Shown here one piece after another: positions 2,634 to 60,233 of a stretch of DNA of 64,000 nt. The notes under the pieces are model-generated. The model saw only the letters and a list, made by a program, of their open reading frames with translations, ran no database searches and had not been told where the DNA came from. The translations under genes were made by a program, and so were the position numbers. The stretch lies in assembly GCF_988243305.1 (NCBI RefSeq), contig NZ_OZ547136.1, one strand, 5' to 3'. The stretch's first letter is position 1, and the number at the start of each line of letters is the position of its first letter.

Positions 2634-3404
2634 CCAGAATAACCAACTTTATTTTTATGCGGTCTCACCGCACCCCGTGATGTCGCCGGGAAGCCCCGGT
2701 AAAAAATAATTAGCATTAGAATAGTTGCGATAAGCTGCAATAGGCAGAGCCCCTTTTTTGGATTTAATAAGTCCTTACAAATAGAAGGGGTTCTTTACAC
2801 TTATCTAAGATTTTTCCTAAATCGACGCAACTTTACTCGTCACTACACTCACATACAACGGAGGGGGGCTGCGATTTTCAATAATGTGTGATGCAGATCA
2901 CACAAAACGCTCAATTACTTAACATAAATGTATAAGTCATACTTTTGTTTTGGGTGTATTTCAATCTGTTAAAAAGTTTTTCGCTACGATAGCAAGTAAA
3001 AATGAAACAGGAATAATCGAAATGGGATGTTGCGCACAGTTAAAATAACTCACCGTAAATAATCATCTGCTATAAATAATTGCTTTAATGCAATACCCGA
3101 TAAGCTATTTTTAAACAGACACTTACCGCACAACAAACTAATTAAATACAAAGAAAGGCAACAATCAACTTAATGTTAATAAAATGTTTTACATATATTA
3201 ACCACTTGTTTGATATGGAGAATCAGTACATTATTTTCTTATAATTACAGTTGAAATCATATGATCACCGAGAGTGATTGATTAATTGTATTTACTAATA
3301 ATCACACTAATATTTACCTGTTTGACTGAGTTGGGATTGCGTCGATTCTCCATTAGGAGTAAAGCTTTAATGTCACCTGAAGTTCACAGAATAAGGAACA
3401 GGTT
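2634..3404 (-). promoter_or_regulatory. flhDC upstream control region (long AT-rich leader/promoter)
   Basis: ~770 bp AT-rich non-coding DNA between flhD start and divergent uspC; position matches the known flhDC regulatory region; individual sites not resolved. Confidence 0.5.
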
Positions 3405-24776: not shown

Positions 24777-26831
24777 TTACGCGTTATTCACTTCCACCAC
24801 GATACTGTCAATCAGTACCGGGTAAGTCGCATTTTTAGTGATATCGGTCACGCGCAACTTGTCTGCCGTAAACGTGCCGACCGGAGACTGCGACAGCATG
24901 AATGGTGTCCCGTCCTTACCATCAATGACCGGCGTCACCTCAATACTGTTGTTACCGGCAAAACGGAAGCCCAGCGTATGCCATTCGTTATTAAATGCGC
25001 CGAATGACCCCAGCTTCGTGTTCTGCGCCGTGTTTCCTTTGTGATACATCACGTTAAGGTCTGTGGCATCGCTCTGTACGTAGAACGATGCCAGCAGGTT
25101 ATGACCGGCATTTCCTTCCAGAGTAACCCCTTGCGGCAGGGCAGAAACCGGCCAGTACAGCGCCAGTGCGTACTGATTAGCCGTAAGCGCGCCATCGAGT
25201 TTAAAACGACAACTGACAAGACCACCTTTACCCAGCAGGTCCGCACCATTACCAGCATCATGCTCAAGGTACCAGGGGGCTCTTCCTGTTTCCTTGGTCA
25301 GTTTCATTGCCTTACCCCCGCTGGCTCCGGCATCATCCACGATTTGAGCCTTGCCACCTCCGGCAGCCCAACCCTGTGGTGTCAACCGTCCTTCAGACTC
25401 AGATGCCCGGTAAGCAAATAGCGTACTCATCGTCGTGGTGTCTGCGGGTGGCGTGGACGGTTTTGATGGTGTATCAGGTGACGGCTTCTCATCCGGTGGT
25501 GTCACGGTCTGCCCGCGCATCAGTTCAGCCGTGCGCCCTGCATGGAGCATAATAGCTGAGGCCAGACGGTCTGAAATGACGCCCCTGCGTGCCCATGAGC
25601 TGAAATGGCTGTCACGCTGTGTCGAAACAAAACTGCCCTGGGTTCGGGATGCTGCACCGTAATACCCGACAGCCACAATATCCGGGTCTTCCGCCGGAGC
25701 ATTCGTTGGCGTGCTCTGTCCATTCTCATCCGTCAGGAACGGTACAAAGAAAATTTTCTGTGCTTCCTTGCCTTTGTAGCCACCGTATACTGCCTCATAT
25801 TTATCGGTGCCAGCGTTTTTCCAGTAATACGTGGTATCACCGCAAATCCACGGCACCGTGGTGGCATTTCCACTCACGCACTGCGCAGCAAGCGGAGCCA
25901 GGTCAGTTCTGAACTGCTGAACCATGGCCGTGAATAAACTATTATGCTGCTGGCTTCCTGAGGCAAGGTCTGCCTCTCCCTGCATCCAGACCACAGCCAG
26001 AAGTTTGTTTTTCGGGTTTTTCGCCAGCGCGACTTTGGTGCGGCTTACCAGGTCCTGATACAGAGGTTTACCGGCCCCCCAGCGTGAAGAATCAGCGGAA
26101 GCACCGCTGGCCTCACTGAATGAGCCGTCGGCTCCAGTGGTGAATGCTGACCCGCCACGACAACAGGGCACCAGAAGTATCCCGGCATTCTGTGGGATAT
26201 AGGGAAGCAGTTTTTTGGCAATATGCAACCCCTGACCGACAGTCCCGTACTGGCCTTTTGCCAGATCAGCTTTCGGGTGGTTTATCCCGCTCATATCCTG
26301 AACATCATGCAGGCAGTGGTCTGCCGGAATGATGTCGTTGTATGTACACGACGTACCGTTGGGCGTTACCGCACTGCGGCGTGCCAGTTGCTTAATGCGT
26401 GGGTCCGGGCGGTCAAACGAATCCGGTAACGGCAGCCCCTCGCCGTAGGCCATGCCATTTGACTGACCCGCGAGAATGACAACAAAGTAATATTCCGGCT
26501 CTGAACTGCTGCCATTCGTGCTACCGGAAGGCCCGGCGTTATCCGGTGCATTCCAGTCGGAGGGCGTGAGCGTTCCGGCCACGTCAGATGTGATTGGAAT
26601 GATGCCAGTCACGCCTGAACTGGTGATTTCTGCACTGGGATTACCGGATACCGGCATTACCCATAATGGCTCTTTCGTGCTGAAGCGGATCACGCAGTCT
26701 GCGAAGGTGATCCCCCCTTTATTACCCGAAGGGCGGAAAGGGCTTTCAATAAATGCCACCGTGCCACCGGCAACCTTGACTGAAAACTCTCCGGGCATGG
26801 CGGAGAGCATTTTCCACTTGGAGTCTGACAT
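24777..26831 (-). CDS. prophage-encoded SGNH/SASA-family sialate O-acetylesterase-like protein (NanS-p-like) with C-terminal lectin-like domain
   Basis: 684-aa ORF; catalytic block YYFVVILAGQSNGMAYGEGLPLPD, VPCCRGGSAFT, AVVWMQGEADL, RDSHFS resembling E. coli NanS; Pro/Thr linker then ~190-aa beta-rich C-terminal domain. Confidence 0.75.
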   Translation of the reverse strand: MSDSKWKMLSAMPGEFSVKVAGGTVAFIESPFRPSGNKGGITFADCVIRFSTKEPLWVMPVSGNPSAEITSSGVTGIIPITSDVAGTLTPSDWNAPDNAGPSGSTNGSSSEPEYYFVVILAGQSNGMAYGEGLPLPDSFDRPDPRIKQLARRSAVTPNGTSCTYNDIIPADHCLHDVQDMSGINHPKADLAKGQYGTVGQGLHIAKKLLPYIPQNAGILLVPCCRGGSAFTTGADGSFSEASGASADSSRWGAGKPLYQDLVSRTKVALAKNPKNKLLAVVWMQGEADLASGSQQHNSLFTAMVQQFRTDLAPLAAQCVSGNATTVPWICGDTTYYWKNAGTDKYEAVYGGYKGKEAQKIFFVPFLTDENGQSTPTNAPAEDPDIVAVGYYGAASRTQGSFVSTQRDSHFSSWARRGVISDRLASAIMLHAGRTAELMRGQTVTPPDEKPSPDTPSKPSTPPADTTTMSTLFAYRASESEGRLTPQGWAAGGGKAQIVDDAGASGGKAMKLTKETGRAPWYLEHDAGNGADLLGKGGLVSCRFKLDGALTANQYALALYWPVSALPQGVTLEGNAGHNLLASFYVQSDATDLNVMYHKGNTAQNTKLGSFGAFNNEWHTLGFRFAGNNSIEVTPVIDGKDGTPFMLSQSPVGTFTADKLRVTDITKNATYPVLIDSIVVEVNNA

Positions 26832-26900: not shown

Positions 26901-26937
26901 GAAATTCAAAAAAGCGTCACGGTACTTTTGGTGACGG
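26901..26937 (-). terminator. rho-independent terminator at gin 3' end
   Basis: Minus strand reads CCGTCACC-AAAAGTACC-GTGACG followed by CTTTTTTGAATTT; stem includes gin stop codon. Confidence 0.45.
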
Positions 26938-27489
26938 AGCTGGTGAGGCAGGAAAATAACGATAAAGGGTGGAAAGGCCAATATCAAATATCAGTGCGAT
27001 TTGTTTACGGGACTCGCCATTAGCCAGCAAACGGGCGATTTGCTCCCGCTCTTTCTCTGTCAGTTTCTGAGGTCTGCCGCCATGACGCCCCTGAGCACGG
27101 GCAGCAGCAAGACCCGCGCGTGTACGTTCAATAATGAGTTCCCGCTCCATTTCCGCCAGCGCGCCCATTATATGGAAAAAGAAACGTCCCATGGGAGTGG
27201 ATGTATCAATATTGTCCGTAATGCTGCGGAAGTTAACGCCGCGTTGCCGGAGTTCTTCTGTTAAAAGGACAAGGTGCTGCATACTGCGTCCAAGGCGATC
27301 CAGTTTCCAGACCAGCAGGGTATCCCCTGGCCGGAGTCGCTTTAATGCGCGTTTAAGTCCGGGACGCTCCCTTGTCTTACCGCTTATTCTATCTTCGAAA
27401 AACAGCTCACATCCTGCACATTCCAGCGCATTTCTTTGTAGCGCCGTATTCTGGTCATTTGTTGACACCCTGATATACCCAATCAGCAT
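26917..27489 (-). CDS. gin: Gin/Hin/Pin-family serine DNA invertase
   Basis: MLIGYIRVSTNDQNTALQRNALECAGCELFFEDRISGKTRERPGLKRALKRL... closely matches Mu Gin. Confidence 0.85.
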   Translation of the reverse strand: MLIGYIRVSTNDQNTALQRNALECAGCELFFEDRISGKTRERPGLKRALKRLRPGDTLLVWKLDRLGRSMQHLVLLTEELRQRGVNFRSITDNIDTSTPMGRFFFHIMGALAEMERELIIERTRAGLAAARAQGRHGGRPQKLTEKEREQIARLLANGESRKQIALIFDIGLSTLYRYFPASPAPSPKVP

Positions 27490-43596: not shown

Positions 43597-44928
43597 TTAA
43601 TCAATTTGTCCTTCCAGCACCTCAAGCATTCCGCCCCGGATATCCGATTTCAGCTTATCCATATTGATAACCCGGTAAGCATTCACAATCACATCCAGTT
43701 TGTCGGGCTGATGTTTCAGACTGTACGGTGCATTAACGGCAATCTGCACACTGCCATCCTTATTTTCCACGATATACATCAGATTTTTGTGCCGTTTGTC
43801 CCACAGCACCGCTTTTGGCTTTGCCAGCATTGCCGGTAAGCGCCCGAAGTCCTCTGGCATCAGGGCGATGCCGTCATTCTGATGTTTCACACTGTCTGCA
43901 TGGAGCACATTTTTACCGCTCATCGCCAGCAGGCGGGCCGGTGGCGTTCCCGTCCGGCTTTCCACTGCCTGCGCAATGCTTTCAGTCATAAAGCCCAGCG
44001 TGCGGATATCGTTACCACCTCGCCGGGTCTGCATGATGTTTTTTGCCCAGATGCGGAACGCCAGCTGCCGCTCCGGGCTGTTGTTCATCTCCTGAACCAC
44101 CATTTCCCGTAACGCCGGGCTTTTCACCTCGATCAGTTTGCGGATCAGCGCCTGGTCTGTGCCGAACGCTGCCGAGCCGGGGTTATATGACCAGCCCACA
44201 TCCGGTGTCATGGTTCTGGTGCCATCTGAATATGTGGTCACCGGCATTTCTCTGACTTCTCCGGTCTGTTTATCCACGCCAGCCTCAACATTGCGGGTGG
44301 AGAGATGATCCTCACCGGATGAAACGGATAACCCCATTGCATCCAGACGAGCCTGAGACAATGGCCGCACACGGCAGCGGCAGTTCCAGCCATTAGGTGG
44401 GTAGTGTGTTTTCCAGAACGGATCGTCATAGCGGAATACCAGACCGTTAAGGGCGGAATGCGACGGGCGGGTACGGCTGTCCATGACCGCCACATACTGC
44501 CAGAACGGATGCGTGTCCGTGTTGTTCATCATCTGCGTGTAACGCCCGGCATTGTAAGCCACACGGGTGTTCACGTTGTAAATCAGCGCCAGACGACGGG
44601 GACTGCCCAGTTGCACTTCTTCCGCGTTACCGTCGCTGTCCACCACAATCTGCTTTCCCCACCATCCCAGCTTTTGCAGGCGTGGCGTCAGCGTGCGGAT
44701 AAATGCTTTCTGTGAAATTCCCTCATCAATGGCCCGCTGCACTTCGGCCTGTAACGTGGTCACCACATCCAGGCGTGCCGCTTTTGCTGCCGTGAATGAG
44801 CGGGCATGAACATCCGCGGCTGTTTCGAACCAGTTCCAGCTGATATGCGCCCCTTTGACACGGAAGTATGCTACCGCCTCTTTTGAGGGAAGCGTGGCGG
44901 CATAACCTAAATCAATCCCCTGTGTCAT
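43597..44928 (-). CDS. head morphogenesis protein (Mu F-like)
   Basis: 443-aa ORF containing NGWNCRCR motif typical of Mu F/SPP1 gp7 family. Confidence 0.7.
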   Translation of the reverse strand: MTQGIDLGYAATLPSKEAVAYFRVKGAHISWNWFETAADVHARSFTAAKAARLDVVTTLQAEVQRAIDEGISQKAFIRTLTPRLQKLGWWGKQIVVDSDGNAEEVQLGSPRRLALIYNVNTRVAYNAGRYTQMMNNTDTHPFWQYVAVMDSRTRPSHSALNGLVFRYDDPFWKTHYPPNGWNCRCRVRPLSQARLDAMGLSVSSGEDHLSTRNVEAGVDKQTGEVREMPVTTYSDGTRTMTPDVGWSYNPGSAAFGTDQALIRKLIEVKSPALREMVVQEMNNSPERQLAFRIWAKNIMQTRRGGNDIRTLGFMTESIAQAVESRTGTPPARLLAMSGKNVLHADSVKHQNDGIALMPEDFGRLPAMLAKPKAVLWDKRHKNLMYIVENKDGSVQIAVNAPYSLKHQPDKLDVIVNAYRVINMDKLKSDIRGGMLEVLEGQID

Positions 44929-46501
44929 CCAGCATCCCCTTCATTTCCGCAGCAAACATGGCATCACTGAGCAGCGTCATCAGGCGGGAATCATCCATTT
45001 CACGATAAAGGGCAGGCAGGTCTGCCAGCGCATCCGCCAGCCCCCGCGTTCTGATGGCATCAATGACCGGCTCCAGTACCGGGTCGATGGCCTCCTGTAA
45101 GCGGCGGGCAGGCACCGCGTCCCCCATATCATCCAGTTCATCACGCGGCGTGCTTTTCGCTTCCGGCAGTCTGGCTGACAGCGCCGTCTGCTCTGTTTTT
45201 TCCTGTTTTTCCGGTGGTGTTTCCCTGTCGGTCTGAGCCGGTTCATTGCCACTCTGACGGACACGGAATATGGCTTCACCGGGCGTGGGCTGCGGAATAC
45301 CGGTCTGCTCCCGTATCCAGGGATCAGAAATATCCATCCCCGTACTGAGCTGCATCACCGCACTGGTGATTTTGGTGATATCACCTGGTTCTTTGGTCTG
45401 GAAGCAGATACGTGGCAGACGGCGGATATCAATAGTGTGCGTGGTGTTCAGGGCGTACAGCGGATACACCAGATCGCGGTTCAGGGTTGCAGCCAGCTGC
45501 CGTAAATCAGAATCCCTGATTTCCCGGCGCACCTCGTTATGCACCTCACCCAGCGAGCGCGCGCCTTTGTCTCCGGCTTCCGTGGTCAGCGTGCCGCCGA
45601 GTATTGCTTTGGAGATGGAACGCTCCCCCCACGAAATCATGGTTTCAAATGGATCGGCCTGACCGTTTGCTGCCGCCTGAAATTCCAGCGACATCCCGGC
45701 CGGGATGATCCCGCCTGTACGTCGCCCGATATCCATCACCGCCCGCATCAGGGCGCTTTTCTGCTCCGGTGTTGCCCCGGACGGGTATTTCCCGACCTTC
45801 ATCGGCAGTCCGTACACCTCCAGAAATTCGGCCAGATCGCGCACGGAATAGTTTTTGAAAATGAACGGCCAGATAAGCGTCCTGACAAGCCCCGTTGCGC
45901 CACCGTAACCGGTCCGTGAACGTGACTGATGCACTATCCAGCCAAAAGGCTGAAACGCCACCCCGGCATGGCTGCCGTCACGCAGCCGCAGTTCGCTCAA
46001 ATCATCCGGGTTAAGGCAGAAATGCCCGCTGTCACGCCAGCGGATGGCGCGGATGATGTGCATTTTACCGAGCATCCCGTGCTCAATTTCCATGCAGGAA
46101 TAGCCCTTCAGGATGGCATCCGTGGCGTCAAACAGCATGGCATCAAACCAGTCTGCGGAATGCAGATATTCGTCGAGCATTTCCGCGTCCTTTTTCTCAT
46201 TCGCGCTGGCGTTCGGTGGCGGCTCAATACTCCATGGCACCCCCTGAATGGCAAGACGTCGCTTGCCCAGCTCCGCAAAAAGGTGGGTGTCCTTTTCTTC
46301 AATATCAGCGGCCAGATCGGACTGGGCAATCAGATCGCCACGTTCAGCCCCGCGAAGGCACTGCGCCGCCCGGTTCGGGGTGATACCCGAAGCCGGATGT
46401 TCAATATAACGGCTGGCAATCTGCGGAATATCCAGCGCGGCACTCTGCATCTCCGGGTCAAAGGAGAAAGGTTTTCCGTCAGTATCAATGATGCGTCCCA
46501 C
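44912..46501 (-). CDS. portal protein (Mu H-like)
   Basis: 529-aa ORF directly downstream of large terminase. Confidence 0.7.
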   Translation of the reverse strand: MGRIIDTDGKPFSFDPEMQSAALDIPQIASRYIEHPASGITPNRAAQCLRGAERGDLIAQSDLAADIEEKDTHLFAELGKRRLAIQGVPWSIEPPPNASANEKKDAEMLDEYLHSADWFDAMLFDATDAILKGYSCMEIEHGMLGKMHIIRAIRWRDSGHFCLNPDDLSELRLRDGSHAGVAFQPFGWIVHQSRSRTGYGGATGLVRTLIWPFIFKNYSVRDLAEFLEVYGLPMKVGKYPSGATPEQKSALMRAVMDIGRRTGGIIPAGMSLEFQAAANGQADPFETMISWGERSISKAILGGTLTTEAGDKGARSLGEVHNEVRREIRDSDLRQLAATLNRDLVYPLYALNTTHTIDIRRLPRICFQTKEPGDITKITSAVMQLSTGMDISDPWIREQTGIPQPTPGEAIFRVRQSGNEPAQTDRETPPEKQEKTEQTALSARLPEAKSTPRDELDDMGDAVPARRLQEAIDPVLEPVIDAIRTRGLADALADLPALYREMDDSRLMTLLSDAMFAAEMKGMLDDTGD

Positions 46502-48168
46502 TACCAGCCCCCCCGATCAAATTCATGATATGCCTCATCGTCATCACGATAACCGCCCTCCATTGCCCGCGACCGCTCCGGTAGCGCCTGACAGGCTGAT
46601 TCATCCAGGATGAAGCCCTCCATGTATGACGCCCGGTTTGCCATACAGAGCGCCACGGCAAAATCACCATGGCGGCGGGCGTTCGCAGCCGTTGCGTTCT
46701 GGTCCTTCGTGCGCCCCTTGTCGATTTGCGGGATACCATTCACTACCTTCACATGGCGCAAATCATCAAGCGTGGTCTGATGGCGGGCGACGAGGATATT
46801 CTGATCTTCAAACTCGGCTTTCAGTTTTGGCATCCACTCGCCGTACCACTTCGGCGACAACATCACGCAGTCGATGATATCCGGGCCAAAGGCCAGCAGT
46901 GCGGCCTCTGCCAGATAGCCGCCGTTACCGGTGGCGTCGAACGCCGCACCGACCAGCGCCGGAACGCGGGTCAGGATGTACATCATCACCTGTTCCTGCT
47001 GGGCATACGGCAGGTTGCGCAGCTCCACGCGAAACACCTCGCGCTTTGCCAGGGATTCGGTGATTTCCAGCAGCACAAAGCAGGACAGGTCACCGGTGCG
47101 GGCAAAGTCTTCCCCGAAGCTGAAGCGGGAACGGGGATTTAATTTCTCTAAAAGCGGTTTTAAATGTTCTTCACACCAGGTTAAAACTTCCGATTCACGC
47201 AGCCATGCGGCACGGCTGATGAAGTTGTCCGGGGCTTCAAACGTCAGAATCGGGATGTCGCGGATCATCGCCATTTCAATAAGCGCGTGGGGGATATAGG
47301 CACCGCCGGATTTTTTCGGGATACAGCCGTATTCCTCGTCGGCATCCTCACGGGTCGGGGCGTTTTTGTAGAGATCATCACGCCATTTCTGCTCGCTTTC
47401 CGGTGACCATTCCTGATCGGTGACGTAACAGATACGACGGTACAGCCCGTCCGCAATGGCATCATCCAGGGTTATGCGGTGGACGCTGTAATCCTTGCGC
47501 CCCTCGCGGGCTTCCTGAATGTACTGATTAAACAGATTATCGACGCCGTTATGCGTGGAGATAATACGCACGCGCGCGCCCCACATAGTGAGCGCCATTG
47601 CCGCCTTGAGAAGCTCATCCAGTGACTCGTGGAACGCGGCTTCATCAATCACCACATCCCCCTGAAGGCCGCGCAGGTTTGACGGACGGGAAGACAATGC
47701 CTGAATTTTGAATCCACTGTTCGGAAAGCGGATCATGTAGGTCAAAATTTCTTCTTTTTTATCCCGATCCCAGAATGTCTGCTCATACACATCAGCATCT
47801 GCCAGCTGGTTAAAGGCACGGGAGAACAGCGCGCAGGCAGAAATATATTCCAGCGCCATCTCCTGCTTTGATCCCACATAAAACACATTGCGGCCACCAC
47901 GACGCTTCGGTTTTGCAGCAGTAATGACGTTACGCCCGGCTTCCGCCCAGGTAAGACCGGTGCGGCGGGATTTCTCCGCGATGCAGACCTGACTTTCATC
48001 TGCAAACCAGCGGGCCTGATAATCCAGAAACACCGGCATATCACCGGGCAAATCAAGGCTGTCCGGCACATCCACGCCCAGCAGGGCTTTTTCACCTGAC
48101 AGATCAATTTTGCGGGGAGGCGTCATTTGCATCAGTGAAGGCGACGTTTCTCTGGCTTTGTTCATCAT
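46501..48168 (-). CDS. terminase large subunit
   Basis: 555-aa ORF; size and position upstream of portal. Confidence 0.75.
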   Translation of the reverse strand: MMNKARETSPSLMQMTPPRKIDLSGEKALLGVDVPDSLDLPGDMPVFLDYQARWFADESQVCIAEKSRRTGLTWAEAGRNVITAAKPKRRGGRNVFYVGSKQEMALEYISACALFSRAFNQLADADVYEQTFWDRDKKEEILTYMIRFPNSGFKIQALSSRPSNLRGLQGDVVIDEAAFHESLDELLKAAMALTMWGARVRIISTHNGVDNLFNQYIQEAREGRKDYSVHRITLDDAIADGLYRRICYVTDQEWSPESEQKWRDDLYKNAPTREDADEEYGCIPKKSGGAYIPHALIEMAMIRDIPILTFEAPDNFISRAAWLRESEVLTWCEEHLKPLLEKLNPRSRFSFGEDFARTGDLSCFVLLEITESLAKREVFRVELRNLPYAQQEQVMMYILTRVPALVGAAFDATGNGGYLAEAALLAFGPDIIDCVMLSPKWYGEWMPKLKAEFEDQNILVARHQTTLDDLRHVKVVNGIPQIDKGRTKDQNATAANARRHGDFAVALCMANRASYMEGFILDESACQALPERSRAMEGGYRDDDEAYHEFDRGGW

Positions 48169-48413
48169 GCTTTACCTGTCAGAATGCTTTTGATTCGGGA
48201 CTCAAGCTCTTCAGTCATCACGTCCACGCCGCTCAACTCATCAGTGGCAGCCTCTGCCAGCAGCGAATGCAGTTGTTCCAGGGATATTTCCCCGGCAATG
48301 CTGAGTTCAGTCAACTCACGACATACCTTTATGGTTTCAGGAGGTAACTGTGTTGCAAGACTGAATGCTTTCTGATGGGCACTGCTCATCAGTGAGCGGT
48401 TATCTGTTGCCAT
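48165..48413 (-). CDS. hypothetical protein, paralogue of C-terminal segment of the upstream gp27-like protein
   Basis: C-terminus AATDELSGVDVMTEELESRIKSILTGKA aligns with AVTDELRGVDGMSEQIEFRIRQMLLGKA of ORF 48424..49005. Confidence 0.4.
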   Translation of the reverse strand: MATDNRSLMSSAHQKAFSLATQLPPETIKVCRELTELSIAGEISLEQLHSLLAEAATDELSGVDVMTEELESRIKSILTGKA

Positions 48414-48423
48414 GATTCACCTC

Positions 48424-49005
48424 CTACGCCTTACCCAGCAGCATCTGCCTGATACGGAATTCGATCTGCTCGCTCATGCCATCCACGCCGCGCAACTCAT
48501 CGGTGACCGCATTCGCCATCTCTTCAGCAAATGCGGCCCGGATTTCTTTTTCACGCTTAATGCTGCGCTCGGCGGCACTTTCTGCACGCTGTGCCGACAG
48601 GAGGATGTCCTTAATAAGGCGCATATCCACATCGCTGTCGCTGTTCAGGGATTCGGTGGCGGCACGCAGACGGCGGTACATCAGGGCACGGGACATCTCC
48701 AGAATCAGTGCCGTGGTTTCACCGGTCGGCTTATCCCCCAGTTCGGCCATCATGGCTTTTGTCTGCTCGCGTAAATCACGCAGATTACGGGCAATCAGCT
48801 CATTACGGGAGGCTTCCCGGCTGATGGCCGCCGGTGAGAGCTGCTGCTCTTCCGGCAGACCTGCTTCACGGATCAGACGGTTGATTTCCTCGCGGATCTG
48901 GACCTGCGTCAGACGTTTTTCACGCAGCATTTCCAGCAGCGGCTTACGGATGCTGTCGGGGAGCAAATCCACCTTGCGTACACGGCCACGCGTCGGCTTA
49001 TCCAT
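48424..49005 (-). CDS. terminase small subunit-like protein (Mu D/gp27 position)
   Basis: 193-aa ORF upstream of large terminase; synteny. Confidence 0.55.
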   Translation of the reverse strand: MDKPTRGRVRKVDLLPDSIRKPLLEMLREKRLTQVQIREEINRLIREAGLPEEQQLSPAAISREASRNELIARNLRDLREQTKAMMAELGDKPTGETTALILEMSRALMYRRLRAATESLNSDSDVDMRLIKDILLSAQRAESAAERSIKREKEIRAAFAEEMANAVTDELRGVDGMSEQIEFRIRQMLLGKA

Positions 49006-49007
49006 CG

Positions 49008-49298
49008 TTACCCCCTTGCGCGTGGTTTCTTCACACCCGGAACAGTGGCACGACCTTCCGCCACATCCTGACCCCGGCCGGTCAGTTCAGCGATGAAATA
49101 ACCGTTAACAAGCGTGCGCTTACGCACCAGTCCCTGCTCAGCAAGCCAGGCAATGTGGGTGTGAACGGTGTCGCGGGACACGCGGTGGCCGTAATCATCC
49201 AGGCAGTCCTGAAGCACGGATTCGCCCAGTTCGCCGTTGTAATCCGCCAGCGACCGCAGAATGACAAGACGCTGATCTTCAGTAATGAAATCACTCAT
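49008..49298 (-). CDS. hypothetical protein (Mu gp26 position)
   Basis: 96-aa ORF; synteny only. Confidence 0.4.
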   Translation of the reverse strand: MSDFITEDQRLVILRSLADYNGELGESVLQDCLDDYGHRVSRDTVHTHIAWLAEQGLVRKRTLVNGYFIAELTGRGQDVAEGRATVPGVKKPRARG

Positions 49299-56903: not shown

Positions 56904-57131
56904 TTAGCTGACTTGTTTCGCACCAACAGAACGGCATATTCCGCTGTAAACTTCTGTCGCACCTTCGCGATCAAGTCCGGCAGATATCACCATTCGTGTG
57001 CGGTCATTAAATTCAAAAAGTAAATCGCCACATTCTTTATTTTCGGCCAGTGAAATCACCTTCACGTTATCGAAATTAACCAGGTAAAAGCGTCCGTAAA
57101 TATCAGGAATATTAAATACCGCCATAATCAC
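56904..57131 (-). CDS. hypothetical small protein at the kil position (directly downstream of B)
   Basis: 75-aa ORF overlapping B stop by 4 nt; in Mu the gene at this position is kil; assignment by position only. Confidence 0.35.
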   Translation of the reverse strand: MIMAVFNIPDIYGRFYLVNFDNVKVISLAENKECGDLLFEFNDRTRMVISAGLDREGATEVYSGICRSVGAKQVS

Positions 57132-58069
57132 ACCTGTGAGAGTAATTCAGGGTTGGTATAAACCTCTTTAAAGGCCGCATTAATATGTTTTTCTGTCAGC
57201 GCCGCGCCTTCACCGCTGGCGGTGAGCCACGCCTGGTTAAGCGTATGTGTCAGAACGCGTAACGCTCCCGGCTTTTCAGCGATAGCCTGCATGACGGCCA
57301 GCTCAGCCTCACCACTGATCCCCCACGCCATGGCAATGGCCAGCACATCCGCCTTTTTGGCCTTGCGAAGTTGTTTTGTACGGGCAAGACGGCTGAACAG
57401 GCGCGATAAATCATCAAAGGCGCGGCGTCCACCTTTAAACAATCCGCGCGGGTTACCAATAAGCACCATCCCGATCCCCGTGGCGTCCTGAATTGCCCGG
57501 AGTTGCTCCAGACCGTCAATACCAAGATGATCCGCCTCATCCACAATCACCAGTCCACGCGTTCCCATCAGGCGACGGCGGATGGCGCGGGATAATGCCC
57601 CTTTGTTCGCGCGGGTGTAATCAATCCCCAGCGCATCGGCCAGCTCCAGCAGACACTCCGTGACGCTGGAGTGCGCGGGTGACAGGGTGATCATCCAGGT
57701 GTTTGGTTGCTCCTGGCAGTAATTACGGGCAGTGGCCGTTTTACCCACACCCGGTACGCCCACAATAACGTTAATACAGCCCATCAGGCGAACCGCCTGA
57801 AACAGTGCGCGCAGCTCCTGGACTGTCTGAGTTTCCACAAACTGCGGCGGTTCCGGCAGTGCGCTTTGTTTATTCCAGTTCTCATACCAGGAGCGCAGGG
57901 AAGCAGCCACAGCAGCGTTATCGCCTTTATATTTTCCCTTACGGAAAGCCGATAATGTGCCGTCGGAAATTCCCGCCTCTCTGGCGATGGCATACTGCGT
58001 CAGTACGCCGCCATCAATAAGTTCATCAATGGTCTTGATTACATCGTTAATATCGGTCATATTATTCAC
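57128..58069 (-). CDS. B: transposition ATPase / target DNA activator B (AAA+)
   Basis: 313-aa ORF, Walker A GVPGVGKT, N-terminal HTH; directly downstream of transposase. Confidence 0.85.
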   Translation of the reverse strand: MNNMTDINDVIKTIDELIDGGVLTQYAIAREAGISDGTLSAFRKGKYKGDNAAVAASLRSWYENWNKQSALPEPPQFVETQTVQELRALFQAVRLMGCINVIVGVPGVGKTATARNYCQEQPNTWMITLSPAHSSVTECLLELADALGIDYTRANKGALSRAIRRRLMGTRGLVIVDEADHLGIDGLEQLRAIQDATGIGMVLIGNPRGLFKGGRRAFDDLSRLFSRLARTKQLRKAKKADVLAIAMAWGISGEAELAVMQAIAEKPGALRVLTHTLNQAWLTASGEGAALTEKHINAAFKEVYTNPELLSQV

Positions 58070-58142: not shown

Positions 58143-60233
58143 TCAGGCCAGCGGATCACTTTCTTTTAATTTCGCTTCGAGCAACTGCAATCCCCGCTGG
58201 AAATTACGCTCGTATTCTTCATCAGGTTCATCGTCAGCGACCGGTTGCTGAACGATCACCGTATTACCCACAGGGCGGTATATATTTTCCAGCCACGGCT
58301 CCTGTGGCTTGTGCTCCAGCACGTTGACAATCTCATCCTCGGCATCACGGATTTTTTCCTCTGCGCGTTTACGCATGCCTTTAAGGCGCTGCTGCTGTTT
58401 GTGGTATTCCGCGCTGACCGGGAAGGCTTCGCGTTTATTGCCGTCCCATACCGCCTCGCAAATCACGCTGCCATCCAGGCGACGTACGGTAATTCGTTCG
58501 GCATCATGAATGTCATAGCTGATAAGCACCTTACGACCATGCTCGTCACGCAGCTCGGGCGCGTAGTAAATATTATTCAGCCAGCGTATTTCACAGCGTC
58601 TTACAGGGCGCTCCACCATCGGCCGGAACATATCCCGCAGTTCAACATCGGACAGCCATTCAATTTCCGTGTCCTCTTCCGCCAGGCGTTTTTTTCTGAA
58701 CTCCGCCGGGCTGTAATGTTTACCGTTCGGCTTCATGGGTAATTCATCGTGCGGCCGGTTGTTGTACCACTCAACACCATCACGAATGGCATCAATCAGT
58801 TCAGCCCAGGACGGTGAATCACGCATCGCTGACTGCTGCCGGGCGTTCAGCCGTTTGCCCTGTTGCAGGGCAGTAAATGCCGAGCGTAAATCGCGGTTGG
58901 TTTTGCGTAACGTCTCGCGATCTGCACCTTTCCCGAAATAGGTGCGGTATTTACGGGCTATGCGCATCGGTAATGTGCGGTTAAGCCGTTCGATAATGCC
59001 TCGTCCCTGCGGATTACCGGCAATCCCGGTCGGGTGATTAATCCCCAGTCGCGGCAGTATCCCCACAACCTCCTTATCCAGGATGTCGGCGGTTTCCCCG
59101 GAGCCGTTATCCGAGTAATACAGAAACGGTTTGCCGTGATGGCGAATGCCGTGCTGTATGGCACCGGCTACGGCGAAAACATTTTCAGCCAGGTCAAGGC
59201 TCCAGCCCACCACAAAGCGCGTGCCACCGTCGATAACAAAGGTCACTTCCGGTGCAAATGGCCGACCGTGAACCGGGTGTGCGCATTTCAGCTTCATGCC
59301 GTGACCGTCACCAATCCAGACATAATTCACCGGCATTTTTGACCAGTCGCGGCGCGTGAATCCCTCAAGCTGGCGGTATTCACTGCCGGTCACCCGGCCT
59401 TTTTGTTTCACCACTTCCGGCAGTTTCTTCATTGCGCGGCGAATGGTGTCATAAGACGGCATGATATCGAGCATATAAGGCTCATCAGCGTGCCGGTGCT
59501 GCCATTCAGCGACAAAATCCTCGTAAGCCTCGGTCATTGGTCGGCCGTTTGACTGGCGATACTGCGCCAGAAATTCGGGCAGCCAGTTAATATCTTCGGC
59601 TTTTATTTCCTGGCGCTTACCCGGTGCCAGTAAAAGCAGGCGTTCAGCGGCGTTCTGCGCCTTGTTAAAGGCCGCAATCCAGCGTTTCAGCGTGATTTCA
59701 CTTAACGCGCGGCTGTTTCCCTTTTTGGCGTTCGCCGTCTCAACCATTGCCACAATGCGCTCGTCCAGCTGCGAACGTGCCAGGTTGTCAACGATAAACC
59801 GGATAGCCTTCGCACAGCTGAAACCAGGTTGTTGCGCGACTTTCAGAACTTCGCTGACGATCGCGATTCGTGCATCAGCCACCTGGCGCTGGTTTTCAGT
59901 CAGGGCATTAAGGCGTTCGACCATCAGTTGTGGTGATCCGCGATATGCCTCCACCGCATCAACCACGGCAGGCGAGCGTCTGGCCTTTGTCACCACTGGA
60001 GCCGGTGATTCATCGACTTTTTGAGTCATCAGTTGCAGGGCGTAGCGTTCACGTAATGCCTGCTGCGTCACTTCAGGTAAACAGTCGATGCTGTATTCAG
60101 TTGCTTTAGAGCCTGAGCGACGACGGGAACAACAGCTTTTCCCTTGTACGTAACGTTGTAATGCCTGGCGAATACCTTTTGTTGTAGCAGGCATTCCGGG
60201 CGCACCAATCAGTTCTTTTGCAATGACATACAT
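58143..60233 (-). CDS. A: Mu-type DDE transposase A
   Basis: 696-aa ORF directly downstream of ner; N-terminal DNA-binding domain and central catalytic region of Mu A size. Confidence 0.85.
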   Translation of the reverse strand: MYVIAKELIGAPGMPATTKGIRQALQRYVQGKSCCSRRRSGSKATEYSIDCLPEVTQQALRERYALQLMTQKVDESPAPVVTKARRSPAVVDAVEAYRGSPQLMVERLNALTENQRQVADARIAIVSEVLKVAQQPGFSCAKAIRFIVDNLARSQLDERIVAMVETANAKKGNSRALSEITLKRWIAAFNKAQNAAERLLLLAPGKRQEIKAEDINWLPEFLAQYRQSNGRPMTEAYEDFVAEWQHRHADEPYMLDIMPSYDTIRRAMKKLPEVVKQKGRVTGSEYRQLEGFTRRDWSKMPVNYVWIGDGHGMKLKCAHPVHGRPFAPEVTFVIDGGTRFVVGWSLDLAENVFAVAGAIQHGIRHHGKPFLYYSDNGSGETADILDKEVVGILPRLGINHPTGIAGNPQGRGIIERLNRTLPMRIARKYRTYFGKGADRETLRKTNRDLRSAFTALQQGKRLNARQQSAMRDSPSWAELIDAIRDGVEWYNNRPHDELPMKPNGKHYSPAEFRKKRLAEEDTEIEWLSDVELRDMFRPMVERPVRRCEIRWLNNIYYAPELRDEHGRKVLISYDIHDAERITVRRLDGSVICEAVWDGNKREAFPVSAEYHKQQQRLKGMRKRAEEKIRDAEDEIVNVLEHKPQEPWLENIYRPVGNTVIVQQPVADDEPDEEYERNFQRGLQLLEAKLKESDPLA

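Follow-up and report, generated by a model that had tools for sequence, protein, structure and literature searches.

Accessory ORFs ('morons') and mosaic junctions are an established concept for the genomes of temperate phages. Phage parasites are known to encode small proteins that target the terminase: the satellite protein PLE Gpi binds and blocks the large terminase, TerL (PMC11417361), and PICI Rpp is reported to redirect helper phage packaging (PMC6739421). The terminase of phage Mu is poorly characterised, and no structure of a relative of its gp27 has been solved. The small terminase (TerS) of P22, gp3, resembles gp27 in having a flexible C-terminal moiety after the oligomerisation region, and an analogy in partner binding may be drawn from this likeness, although the two proteins show no sequence or structural relationship.

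Here we analysed a window of 64,000 nucleotides (contig NZ_OZ547136.1 of RefSeq assembly GCF_988243305.1) in which a small ORF, orf82, lies between the gene of a gp27-family small terminase and that of TerL. Gpi and Rpp are parasite-encoded and were shown experimentally to act as they do, whereas orf82 is the phage's own and sits inside the packaging operon; the two proteins provide a model for orf82 if it acts by mimicry, and no sequence similarity to them is claimed. Like a moron, orf82 is small, apparently dispensable and patchily distributed, and is placed at a boundary of conserved genes with sharp breaks in identity. Unlike morons, it lacks a dedicated promoter and terminator and is in part derived from a neighbouring essential gene. 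Ordinary phage mosaicism that left a dispensable chimeric ORF is most likely what this locus represents.

Location and expression signals of orf82

orf82 (48165..48413; this and all features below are on the minus strand) consists of 82 codons and a stop and begins with ATG. The upstream gene (48424..49005) encodes a 193-aa protein that matches Pfam PF11985 (Phage_Mu_Gp27) at E 3.1e-33 and PHROG 426, 'terminase small subunit', while the downstream gene (46501..48168) encodes TerL, a 555-aa homologue of Mu gp28 in PHROG 2. In the closest genome orf82 is annotated as 'hypothetical protein' (RefSeq WP_000179787.1). Its own family is PHROG 30922, which matches as a full-length profile (E 6.9e-52, residues 2-82 on positions 2-82 of 82) and has no assigned function; a link to the gp27 tail is absent from the annotations examined. 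Pfam, NCBIfam and PHROGs give no function for orf82 or for the other small ORFs of this slot. The PF11985 model, whose gathering score is 28 bits, does not match orf82 at E<=1, whereas the neighbouring gp27 reaches 116 bits, and annotation of orf82 as a terminase subunit should be avoided. Weak family matches to HIGH_NTase1 and the VapB15 antitoxin fall far under the cut-offs and were rejected.

Read from the sequence, the Shine-Dalgarno (SD) element of orf82 is AGGAGGTG (48418..48425), 4 nt 5' of the ATG and overlapping the TAG stop codon of gp27 (48424-48426). This SD is a consensus one, stronger than those of the neighbouring genes, and the same type is kept in the related loci L007 and L012; some orf82 alleles use GTG as the start codon. 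Between 47800 and 49400, a consensus scan (a weak test) found no sigma-70-like promoter, and terminator-like sites showed no excess over chance. Rfam gave a single sub-threshold match in the orf82 region, at 17 bits where the gathering score is 45, and RNA folding compared with shuffled sequence was not unusual (z-scores +0.59, -0.30 and +0.62). Fusion of gp27 and orf82 by read-through or frameshifting was ruled out, the frames being offset (13 nt from stop to ATG) with a strong SD between them.

The C-terminus of orf82 resembles the gp27 tail

The earlier note had described a stand-alone 82-aa ORF with a C-terminus homologous to that of gp27 and had proposed an alignment of the two proteins, which bears the description out. 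Residues 52-82 of orf82 (48168..48260) align without gaps with residues 163-193 of the resident gp27 (48427..48519; the paralogous 'tail A', ...GVDGMSEQIEFRIRQMLLGKA), with 18/31 residues identical (58%) and 24/31 similar (BLASTP E 3e-10, single comparison), and 27-31 residues are shared, in line with the ~28 given in that note. Independent support comes from gp27 residues 162-193, which match phrog_30922 at E 6.3e-8. Using a profile of 45 distinct gp27 tails in a six-frame search of 92 loci, we obtained 27-32 bits for the orf82 tail (E about 1e-6 to 3e-8), about half of the 51-61 bits of genuine gp27 tails. The similarity of the two tails is real and well above chance. Both have one orientation, with a spacing of 259 nt, and they are identical at 62/93 nucleotides (67%), a divergence too high for the DNA repeat finder, which did not report the pair.

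The tail ranks among the best-conserved segments of the gp27 family, with G176, I185 and G191 invariant and L190 near-invariant in 48 sequences that reach down to 33% identity. In the structure model of gp27, the tail is a terminal helix behind a 7-residue loop, comparable to the flexible 'C-terminal moiety' that other small terminases have. The PDB contains no sequence relative of gp27, and Foldseek with the gp27 model found nothing there at E<=0.001, which leaves the small-terminase fold without structural confirmation. The orf82 tail is likewise modelled as the end of a helix, a 7-residue loop and a terminal amphipathic helix. Its likeness to Mu gp27 and the PF11985 proteins covers the last 27-31 residues (pattern ...T-[DE]-E-L-x-G-x-D-x-M-[ST]-E-x-L-E-x-R-I-x-x-I-L-x-G-K-A-stop). 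The tail residues I23, G29, L19, I26 and L27 are kept, whereas two of the four most conserved positions are changed in all alleles: G14 to V (gp27 G176) and L28 to T (gp27 L190). The orf82 protein has in common with the PF11985 family the predicted loop and terminal helix, as well as a stop codon over the TerL start, and differs from it in having neither an HTH-containing N-terminal region nor long central helices (82 versus 193 aa).

To the gp27 tail of relatives that do not carry the ORF (hereafter ORF-less), the orf82 tail shows 77% identity at the DNA level and 71% at the amino-acid level, as against 67% and 58% for the resident gp27 tail. Its dS is 0.6 to the ORF-less tail (dN/dS 0.31) and about 1.6, which is saturated, to the resident one.

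The N-terminal domain is shared with tail-less ORFs of the same slot

Residues 1-51 of orf82 (48261..48413), with homology extending to about residue 55, make up an N-domain predicted to be a three-helix unit (5-22, 25-39 and 45-60). Residues 1-55 show no similarity to gp27, as BLASTP finds the tail alone. The orf82 sequence has no similarity to gp27 1-162. Its model is a three-helix unit plus the tail helix, and the N-terminal DNA-binding HTH and central helical oligomerisation core of the small-terminase class are not in it. A Foldseek search of viral models with this structure returned no match at E<=0.001.

Homologues of the N-domain are encoded in the same gp27/TerL slot of other Mu-like prophages and lack the tail. 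The closest, P0012 (67 aa), is 54-57% identical over residues 1-56 and matches orf82 at E 2.2e-7 when 1.8 billion representatives are scanned in full with HMMER; its upstream SD and first codons are identical to those of orf82. The locus that encodes it, L007, agrees with the orf82 locus in N-domain, SD and gp27 tail but has no second tail. Tail-less homologues also include the 65-aa ORFs of L033/L036, a weak link (35% over 40 aa for L036, E 2e-5 pairwise; phrog_30922 at E 0.007), and the N-domain homology to these ORFs is to be read with that caution. All of these ORFs have L8, A12, C31, R32 and I39 in common with orf82, along with their position, and differ from it in ending 8-10 residues past the N-domain without a terminase tail. 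By its location between gp27 and TerL and its N-domain of ~55 aa, orf82 belongs to this slot-ORF family. A comparison with related phages, which the earlier note had also proposed, turned up homologues in the slot (P0012, L033/L036) and no tail-bearing copy elsewhere: the tail-profile search detected no other second tail in ~80 further gp27 loci or in Mu. The tail-bearing ORF appears, from these sequences, to have had a single origin. Wider searches (5.8 billion proteins through a word index, 1.8 billion representatives with HMMER) returned only E. coli relatives and P0012. Two long repetitive proteins that match the tail region, P0013 and P0014, were taken as chance. Coupling to TerL is not universal among slot ORFs, as P0012 stops 120 nt before TerL in L007.

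orf82 lies in a variable cassette at the gp27/TerL boundary

A variable cassette (about 48118..48481) begins midway through the gp27 tail and ends at about TerL codon 17. Relatives are at least 93% identical on both flanks, whereas inside they are 62-83% identical or unalignable; the ORF-less prophage CI5 compared with the window likewise shows at least 93% identity outside the cassette and 62-83% inside. The first ~17 codons of TerL (about 48118-48168) are hypervariable among relatives, and conservation is back from PRKIDL on. Whether the TerL N-terminus varies along with tail type was also looked at. No usable signal emerged, as this N-terminus is hypervariable everywhere and tail A pairs with two different versions of it, that of the window and that of L007/L012.

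In Mu, gp27 and TerL abut with a 7-nt gap, and they abut in most relatives too, mostly with a stop/start overlap. Here the overlap (48163..48168, ATGATG) is formed by the orf82 stop, TGA at 48165-48167, and the TerL start, and the same TGATG junction joins the gp27 stop to TerL in ORF-less relatives. Elsewhere the slot holds unrelated small ORFs (L035, L071/75/78 and L083/84/89). Small ORFs are captured repeatedly at the gp27/TerL boundary, a hotspot of recombination.

Among ~230 E. coli genomes with this gp27 region, 24 carry orf82-specific DNA, which is lacking in ~90% of close relatives; orf82 is also absent from phage Mu. In one sister lineage, L012/L021, most of it has been deleted; its SD and first 4 codons are left in a mini-ORF of 9 codons, the end of which still overlaps the TerL ATG. 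ORF-less and ORF-bearing prophages coexist in some genomes, which gives an opportunity for recombination. Among the lysogens, E. coli JE86-ST05 has three copies.

Constraint on the orf82 reading frame

Variable sites are distributed over the three codon positions as 11:13:18 in orf82, with no significant departure from uniform, versus 1:0:42 in gp27. Pairwise dN/dS is mostly 0.1-0.6 for orf82, 0 for gp27 and 0.02-0.13 for TerL, and the dN/dS test on the most divergent orf82 pair is not significant (Fisher p 0.18). orf82 is weakly constrained, its substitutions being nearly neutral with respect to codon position. Across 7 distinct alleles, in which 17% of sites vary, the frame stays open; it is intact and annotated as a CDS in 24/24 complete genomes, and the length variants of 79 and 80 aa are in-frame deletions of 2-3 codons. 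Draft data contain truncated or frameshifted versions (P0010, P0011 and P0008/9). A dN/dS below 1 in most divergent pairs, together with the intact frames and the in-frame deletions, suggests some selection on the product or on the open frame.

Origin and possible role of orf82

We favour, with a probability of roughly 55%, the interpretation that orf82 is a chimeric accessory ORF, generated by recombination in the variable gp27/TerL cassette of one E. coli Mu-like prophage lineage, which is dispensable and whose tail is kept with the coupling to TerL. Its first ~55 residues would come from the slot-ORF family that is found tail-less at the same place elsewhere, and its last ~30 residues would correspond in position to the C-terminal tail that the small terminase has in ORF-less relatives. 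This tail would have arrived fused in frame, bringing its native stop/start overlap onto TerL. If orf82 is translated in the late operon, ribosomes would be delivered to the TerL start, and the tail-coding segment may persist mainly because the ancestral coupling junction was carried there. The protein itself would be non-essential, and at most a weak mimic of the terminal helix of the small terminase. As to direction, the reverse may hold instead: the two tails of an orf82-type ancestor could have recombined, with the ORF-less type as the resulting deletion product. In its 5' half, the ORF-less gp27 tail is 91% like tail A, and its 3' half is nearer the orf82 tail.

An N-domain from tail-less slot ORFs and a tail nearer to ORF-less gp27 tails together point to a chimera and not to a tandem copy of the gp27 3' end. 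The earlier note had suggested a duplication remnant of the resident gp27, that is, an intragenomic tandem duplicate of its 3' end whose upstream part has decayed past recognition. Two tails in the same orientation 259 nt apart, and a length of 82 codons, are compatible with such a duplicated segment, but the resident tail is only 67% identical in DNA, with a dS of about 1.6, and foreign gp27 tails are nearer. In addition, the N-terminal two-thirds are unrelated to gp27 (residues 1-55 by BLASTP; no PF11985 match at E<=1) and match tail-less slot ORFs, and L007 shares the N-domain, SD and gp27 tail and is without the second tail. We therefore regard this suggestion as highly improbable. The idea that orf82 is not a gene, but an untranslated spacer or leader of TerL that is open by chance, draws on the 11:13:18 pattern that is not distinguishable from uniform, the Fisher p of 0.18 for dN/dS, the truncated or frameshifted draft versions (P0010, P0011, P0008/9) and the lack of a match to any family of known function. 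It is hard to reconcile with a consensus SD (AGGAGGTG, 4 nt from the start) that is kept even where orf82 is deleted, with GTG starts in some alleles, and with a frame that is open in 7 alleles at 17% variable sites, a CDS in 24/24 complete genomes and altered in length only in frame. The stop lies exactly over the TerL start, and divergent slot ORFs have conserved the N-domain. The mere untranslated leader, which the earlier note had named as the refuting case, is unlikely.

A role for the protein would follow if orf82 were a trans-acting terminase modulator that works by tail mimicry, docking on the partner of the gp27 tail and either competing with gp27 or tethering its N-domain to the motor. 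By analogy with other phages this partner is assumed to be TerL, or alternatively the gp27 oligomer, and docking would tune holoenzyme assembly or packaging initiation. We see such a role as possible but doubtful. It is consistent with the strong conservation of the gp27 tail and its loop-set terminal helix in the model, with the loss of TerL association in P22 when the C-terminal tail of the small terminase is deleted (PMC9611059), and with the satellites' small packaging modulators that bind TerL or TerS, such as PLE Gpi (PMC11417361). orf82 keeps the loop and amphipathic helix with I23, G29, L19, I26 and L27, is co-transcribed behind an SD stronger than its neighbours', and its tail has a dN/dS of 0.31 against the ORF-less gp27 tail. 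However, every allele carries the G-to-V and L-to-T changes, which affect two of the tail's four best-conserved positions, with a profile score about half that of genuine tails; moreover, orf82 is missing from ~90% of near-identical prophages and from Mu, is deleted in L012/L021, and as a tail-bearing ORF has one origin only. The near-neutral substitution pattern, the two lost tail residues and the ~90% absence lean against a finely tuned regulator. A more specific version, also built on analogy, in which orf82 is a self-encoded stand-alone mimic of the partner-binding helix of TerS, joined to an unrelated three-helix domain and tuning terminase assembly or packaging initiation as it competes for, or piggy-backs on, the binding site of the gp27 tail (on TerL or the gp27 ring), seems rather unlikely. 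If true, it would be a self-encoded counterpart of the terminase-targeting satellite proteins and a natural 'tail-only' probe of the Mu TerS-TerL interface.

The locus marks the C-terminal loop-helix of gp27 as a highly conserved, modular part, and orf82, with the tail and without the rest of TerS, is a natural construct for asking which partner the tail has. In reference records, TerL still carries labels such as 'hypothetical' and even 'portal'.

orf82 lies between the two terminase genes of a Mu-like prophage

The window contains a complete Mu-like prophage on its minus strand, with transposase A (58143-60233), MuB (57128-58069), and then Mor, lysozyme, homologues of gp25 and gp26, the small terminase gp27 (48424-49005, minus strand; PF11985, 116 bits; PHROG 426, "terminase small subunit"), the large terminase TerL (46501-48168, minus strand; PHROG 2), the portal (44912-46501), MuF, the major head protein, the sheath and, at the tail-fibre end, a Gin-like invertase (26917-27489). 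An 82-aa ORF (orf82; 48165-48413, minus strand) sits in the late operon with gp27 on one side and TerL on the other. As the earlier note had proposed, its C-terminal segment is homologous to the C-terminus of gp27: its residues 52-82 and gp27 residues 163-193 form an ungapped alignment (58% identity, E 3e-10). gp27 also matches phrog_30922, the family of orf82 itself, at E 6.3e-8, and the orf82 tail scores 27-32 bits on a profile of 45 distinct gp27 tails.

A consensus Shine-Dalgarno sequence (SD), AGGAGGTG (48418-48425), has the gp27 stop codon TAG embedded in it and lies 4 nt upstream of the orf82 ATG. The orf82 TGA overlaps the TerL start (ATGATG), a TGATG-type junction matching that between gp27 and TerL in relatives without the ORF. 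Scans of the orf82 region gave no promoter and no convincing terminator, and neither an Rfam family nor an RNA fold of unusual stability, which makes orf82 an internal cistron of the operon.

Using AlphaFold with alignments of 48 (gp27) and 12 (orf82) sequences, we obtained models with mean pLDDT of 76 and 72. In the gp27 model, a pair of N-terminal helices precedes three long ones, and a 7-residue loop (RGVDGMS) leads into the terminal helix (179-192). The orf82 model shows helices 5-22, 25-39 and 45-60, followed by a loop predicted at low confidence (SGVDVMT) and by helix 68-79 at the end. In these models, the two proteins share a helix end, a loop and a terminal amphipathic helix. Fold searches with both models were uninformative, and gp27 has no relative with a solved structure.

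orf82 is a rare chimera in a variable slot

DNA of the gp27 region is present in 230 of 5426 complete E. coli genomes, while ORF-specific DNA (48262-48423) occurs in only 24 of them (28 places), each time under an annotated "hypothetical protein". In the remaining genomes, such as CI5, and in the Mu-like inserts of two Stx phages, gp27 directly adjoins TerL; phage Mu has a 7-nt gap between gp27 and gp28, with no ORF. In two protein searches, one covering 5.8 billion sequences and the other 1.8 billion, the family appeared only in E. coli, apart from a divergent 67-aa relative, P0012.

We surveyed the gp27/TerL gap in eighty IMG/VR loci with gp27 relatives (30-100% identity). By default the gp27 stop overlaps the TerL start, but in several lineages small ORFs of differing kinds fill the junction: 65 aa in L033 and L036, 87 aa in L035, 63-68 aa in L071, L075 and L078 (PHROG 1761/5120), and 50-55 aa and hydrophobic in L083, L084 and L089. 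The junction (~48118-48481 in the window) is a variable cassette in Mu-like phages that repeatedly holds unrelated small ORFs. The ORFs of 65-87 aa (L033, L035, L036) are soluble, and the first ~17 codons of TerL, ahead of a conserved PRKIDL, are hypervariable.

Two slot ORFs resemble the N-terminal domain of orf82. P0012 belongs to L007, which shares its gp27 tail, SD and first ORF codons with the window. It is homologous to orf82 residues 1-56 but lacks a tail, terminating in QSSRRGKT; the TerL that starts 120 nt further on has a different N-terminus again. The 65-aa L036 ORF shares 35% identity with orf82 residues 7-46 (pairwise E 2e-5) and matches phrog_30922 at E 0.007; L8, A12, C31, R32 and I39 are conserved in a joint alignment of orf82 and the slot ORFs. 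Together with the gp27-like tail, these matches show that orf82 joins the N-domain of a slot ORF to a gp27 tail. The most fitting class for this member of PHROG 30922 is a mosaic accessory ORF located where phage modules meet. The tail profile finds a second tail copy only in orf82-bearing loci, and in neither the other gp27 loci nor Mu, which points to a single origin.

The deletion derivatives L012 and L021 retain the SD and ATGGCAACAGAC in a mini-ORF of 9 codons, with its stop overlapping the TerL ATG. In L012 (3582-3650; equivalent in L021) it reads MATDWFSYE*, with the strong SD and the first 4 slot-ORF codons retained, which suggests selection to keep ribosome delivery to TerL. gp27 itself is broken by a premature stop or frameshift in L021 (~1895-2086) and L042 (~3045-3323), both decaying prophages; an 85-aa C-terminal ORF left over in L042 superficially resembles a stand-alone tail protein but is a pseudogene fragment.

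The orf82 tail is closer to the gp27 tail of ORF-less relatives

Identity between the window and ORF-less CI5 is at least 93% on both sides of a stretch that starts midway through the gp27 tail (~48481) and closes at TerL codon ~17 (~48118); within it, identity falls to 62-83% or sequence is absent. In pairwise comparisons over the 93-nt tails, the orf82 tail matches the resident gp27 tail at 62/93 positions and the ORF-less gp27 tail at 72/93; the two gp27 tails match at 75/93 (5' half 41/45, 3' half 34/48), and over the 3' half the ORF-less and orf82 tails match at 37/48. Synonymous divergence from the orf82 tail is ~1.6 for the resident tail and ~0.6 for the ORF-less tail, against 0.1-0.2 in flanking genes. 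The interpretation in the earlier note is partly right: the feature is real, but the orf82 tail, closer to that of ORF-less gp27, is no recent copy of the resident one. Instead, the orf82 tail together with the TerL 5' end corresponds in position to the junction of gp27 tail and TerL in a different, more distant Mu-like phage.

Two histories are plausible alternatives: a slot ORF may have been fused to a foreign junction, giving the ORF-bearing type, or a deletion between the two tails may have given the ORF-less type. TOE17 (NZ_CP069093.1; a 1.5-kb query in 2 places, the ORF-specific query in 1) and strain 48 (NZ_CP166879.1; 4 and 2 places) each hold ORF-bearing and ORF-less Mu-like prophages, so that recombination between co-resident prophages is plausible. 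JE86-ST05 (NZ_AP022815.1) carries the orf82-bearing region three times. Such multiple or mixed copies suggest recent transposition and a chance for inter-prophage recombination.

orf82 evolves under weak constraint

Seven alleles from the same loci were compared. gp27 is under extreme purifying selection, with variable sites by codon position of 1:0:42 and zero nonsynonymous changes versus up to 29 synonymous, whereas the adjoining orf82 varies almost evenly (11:13:18). Pairwise dN/dS is mostly 0.1-0.6 for orf82 and 0.02-0.13 for TerL; the most divergent orf82 pair did not reach significance in a Fisher test (p 0.18). orf82 is open in all seven alleles, some with a GTG start codon, and two metagenomic variants (79 and 80 aa) have in-frame 2-3-codon deletions at the domain/tail joint; frameshifted and truncated versions also exist. 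Among the 45 distinct gp27 tails, G14, I23 and G29 never change and L28 is near-invariant, while all orf82 alleles have V14 and T28.

Few parts of the gp27 family are as conserved as the tail, and in P22 deletion of the small terminase tail abolishes TerL association (PMC9611059). By analogy, the gp27 tail is a good candidate partner-binding element. orf82 could then act in trans as a tail mimic, analogous in principle to the satellite protein PLE Gpi, which binds TerL (PMC11417361). We consider this role unlikely: dispensability, single origin, near-neutral evolution and altered key tail residues point away from a tuned regulator. We favour a reading in which orf82 would be an expressed, non-essential recombination product, its tail-coding part surviving chiefly because the ancestral stop/start junction would feed ribosomes into TerL; the 9-codon remnant of L012 and L021 has exactly this stop-over-start arrangement. 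orf82 is chiefly of value as a pointer to functional modularity of the Mu small-terminase tail, and also to a recombination hotspot at the TerS/TerL boundary.

Other features of the prophage

The closest phage-database matches of the gp27 region are Mu-like phages inserted within Stx phages. Annotation of this TerL family is weak: TerL of the window (46501-48168) has no Pfam-A match and is a PGAP "hypothetical protein", and the Mu record NC_000929.1 names the TerL homologue gp28 (Mup28) "putative portal protein", the portal being gp29. Upstream of gp27, a 96-aa gene (49008-49298; NCBIfam VpaChn25_0724 family; PHROG 436) is the positional counterpart of Mu gp26; its product has weak winged-helix/ArsR-like matches and may bind DNA as a partner within the packaging module. 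At the tail-fibre end (24777-26831, 26917-27489 and 27980-28501) lie the Gin-like serine invertase and, in opposite orientation, a tail-fibre assembly gene, which form a probable invertible host-range segment; adjoining it is a 684-aa SASA/DUF6645 sialate-esterase-like protein of a kind found in lambdoid prophages.
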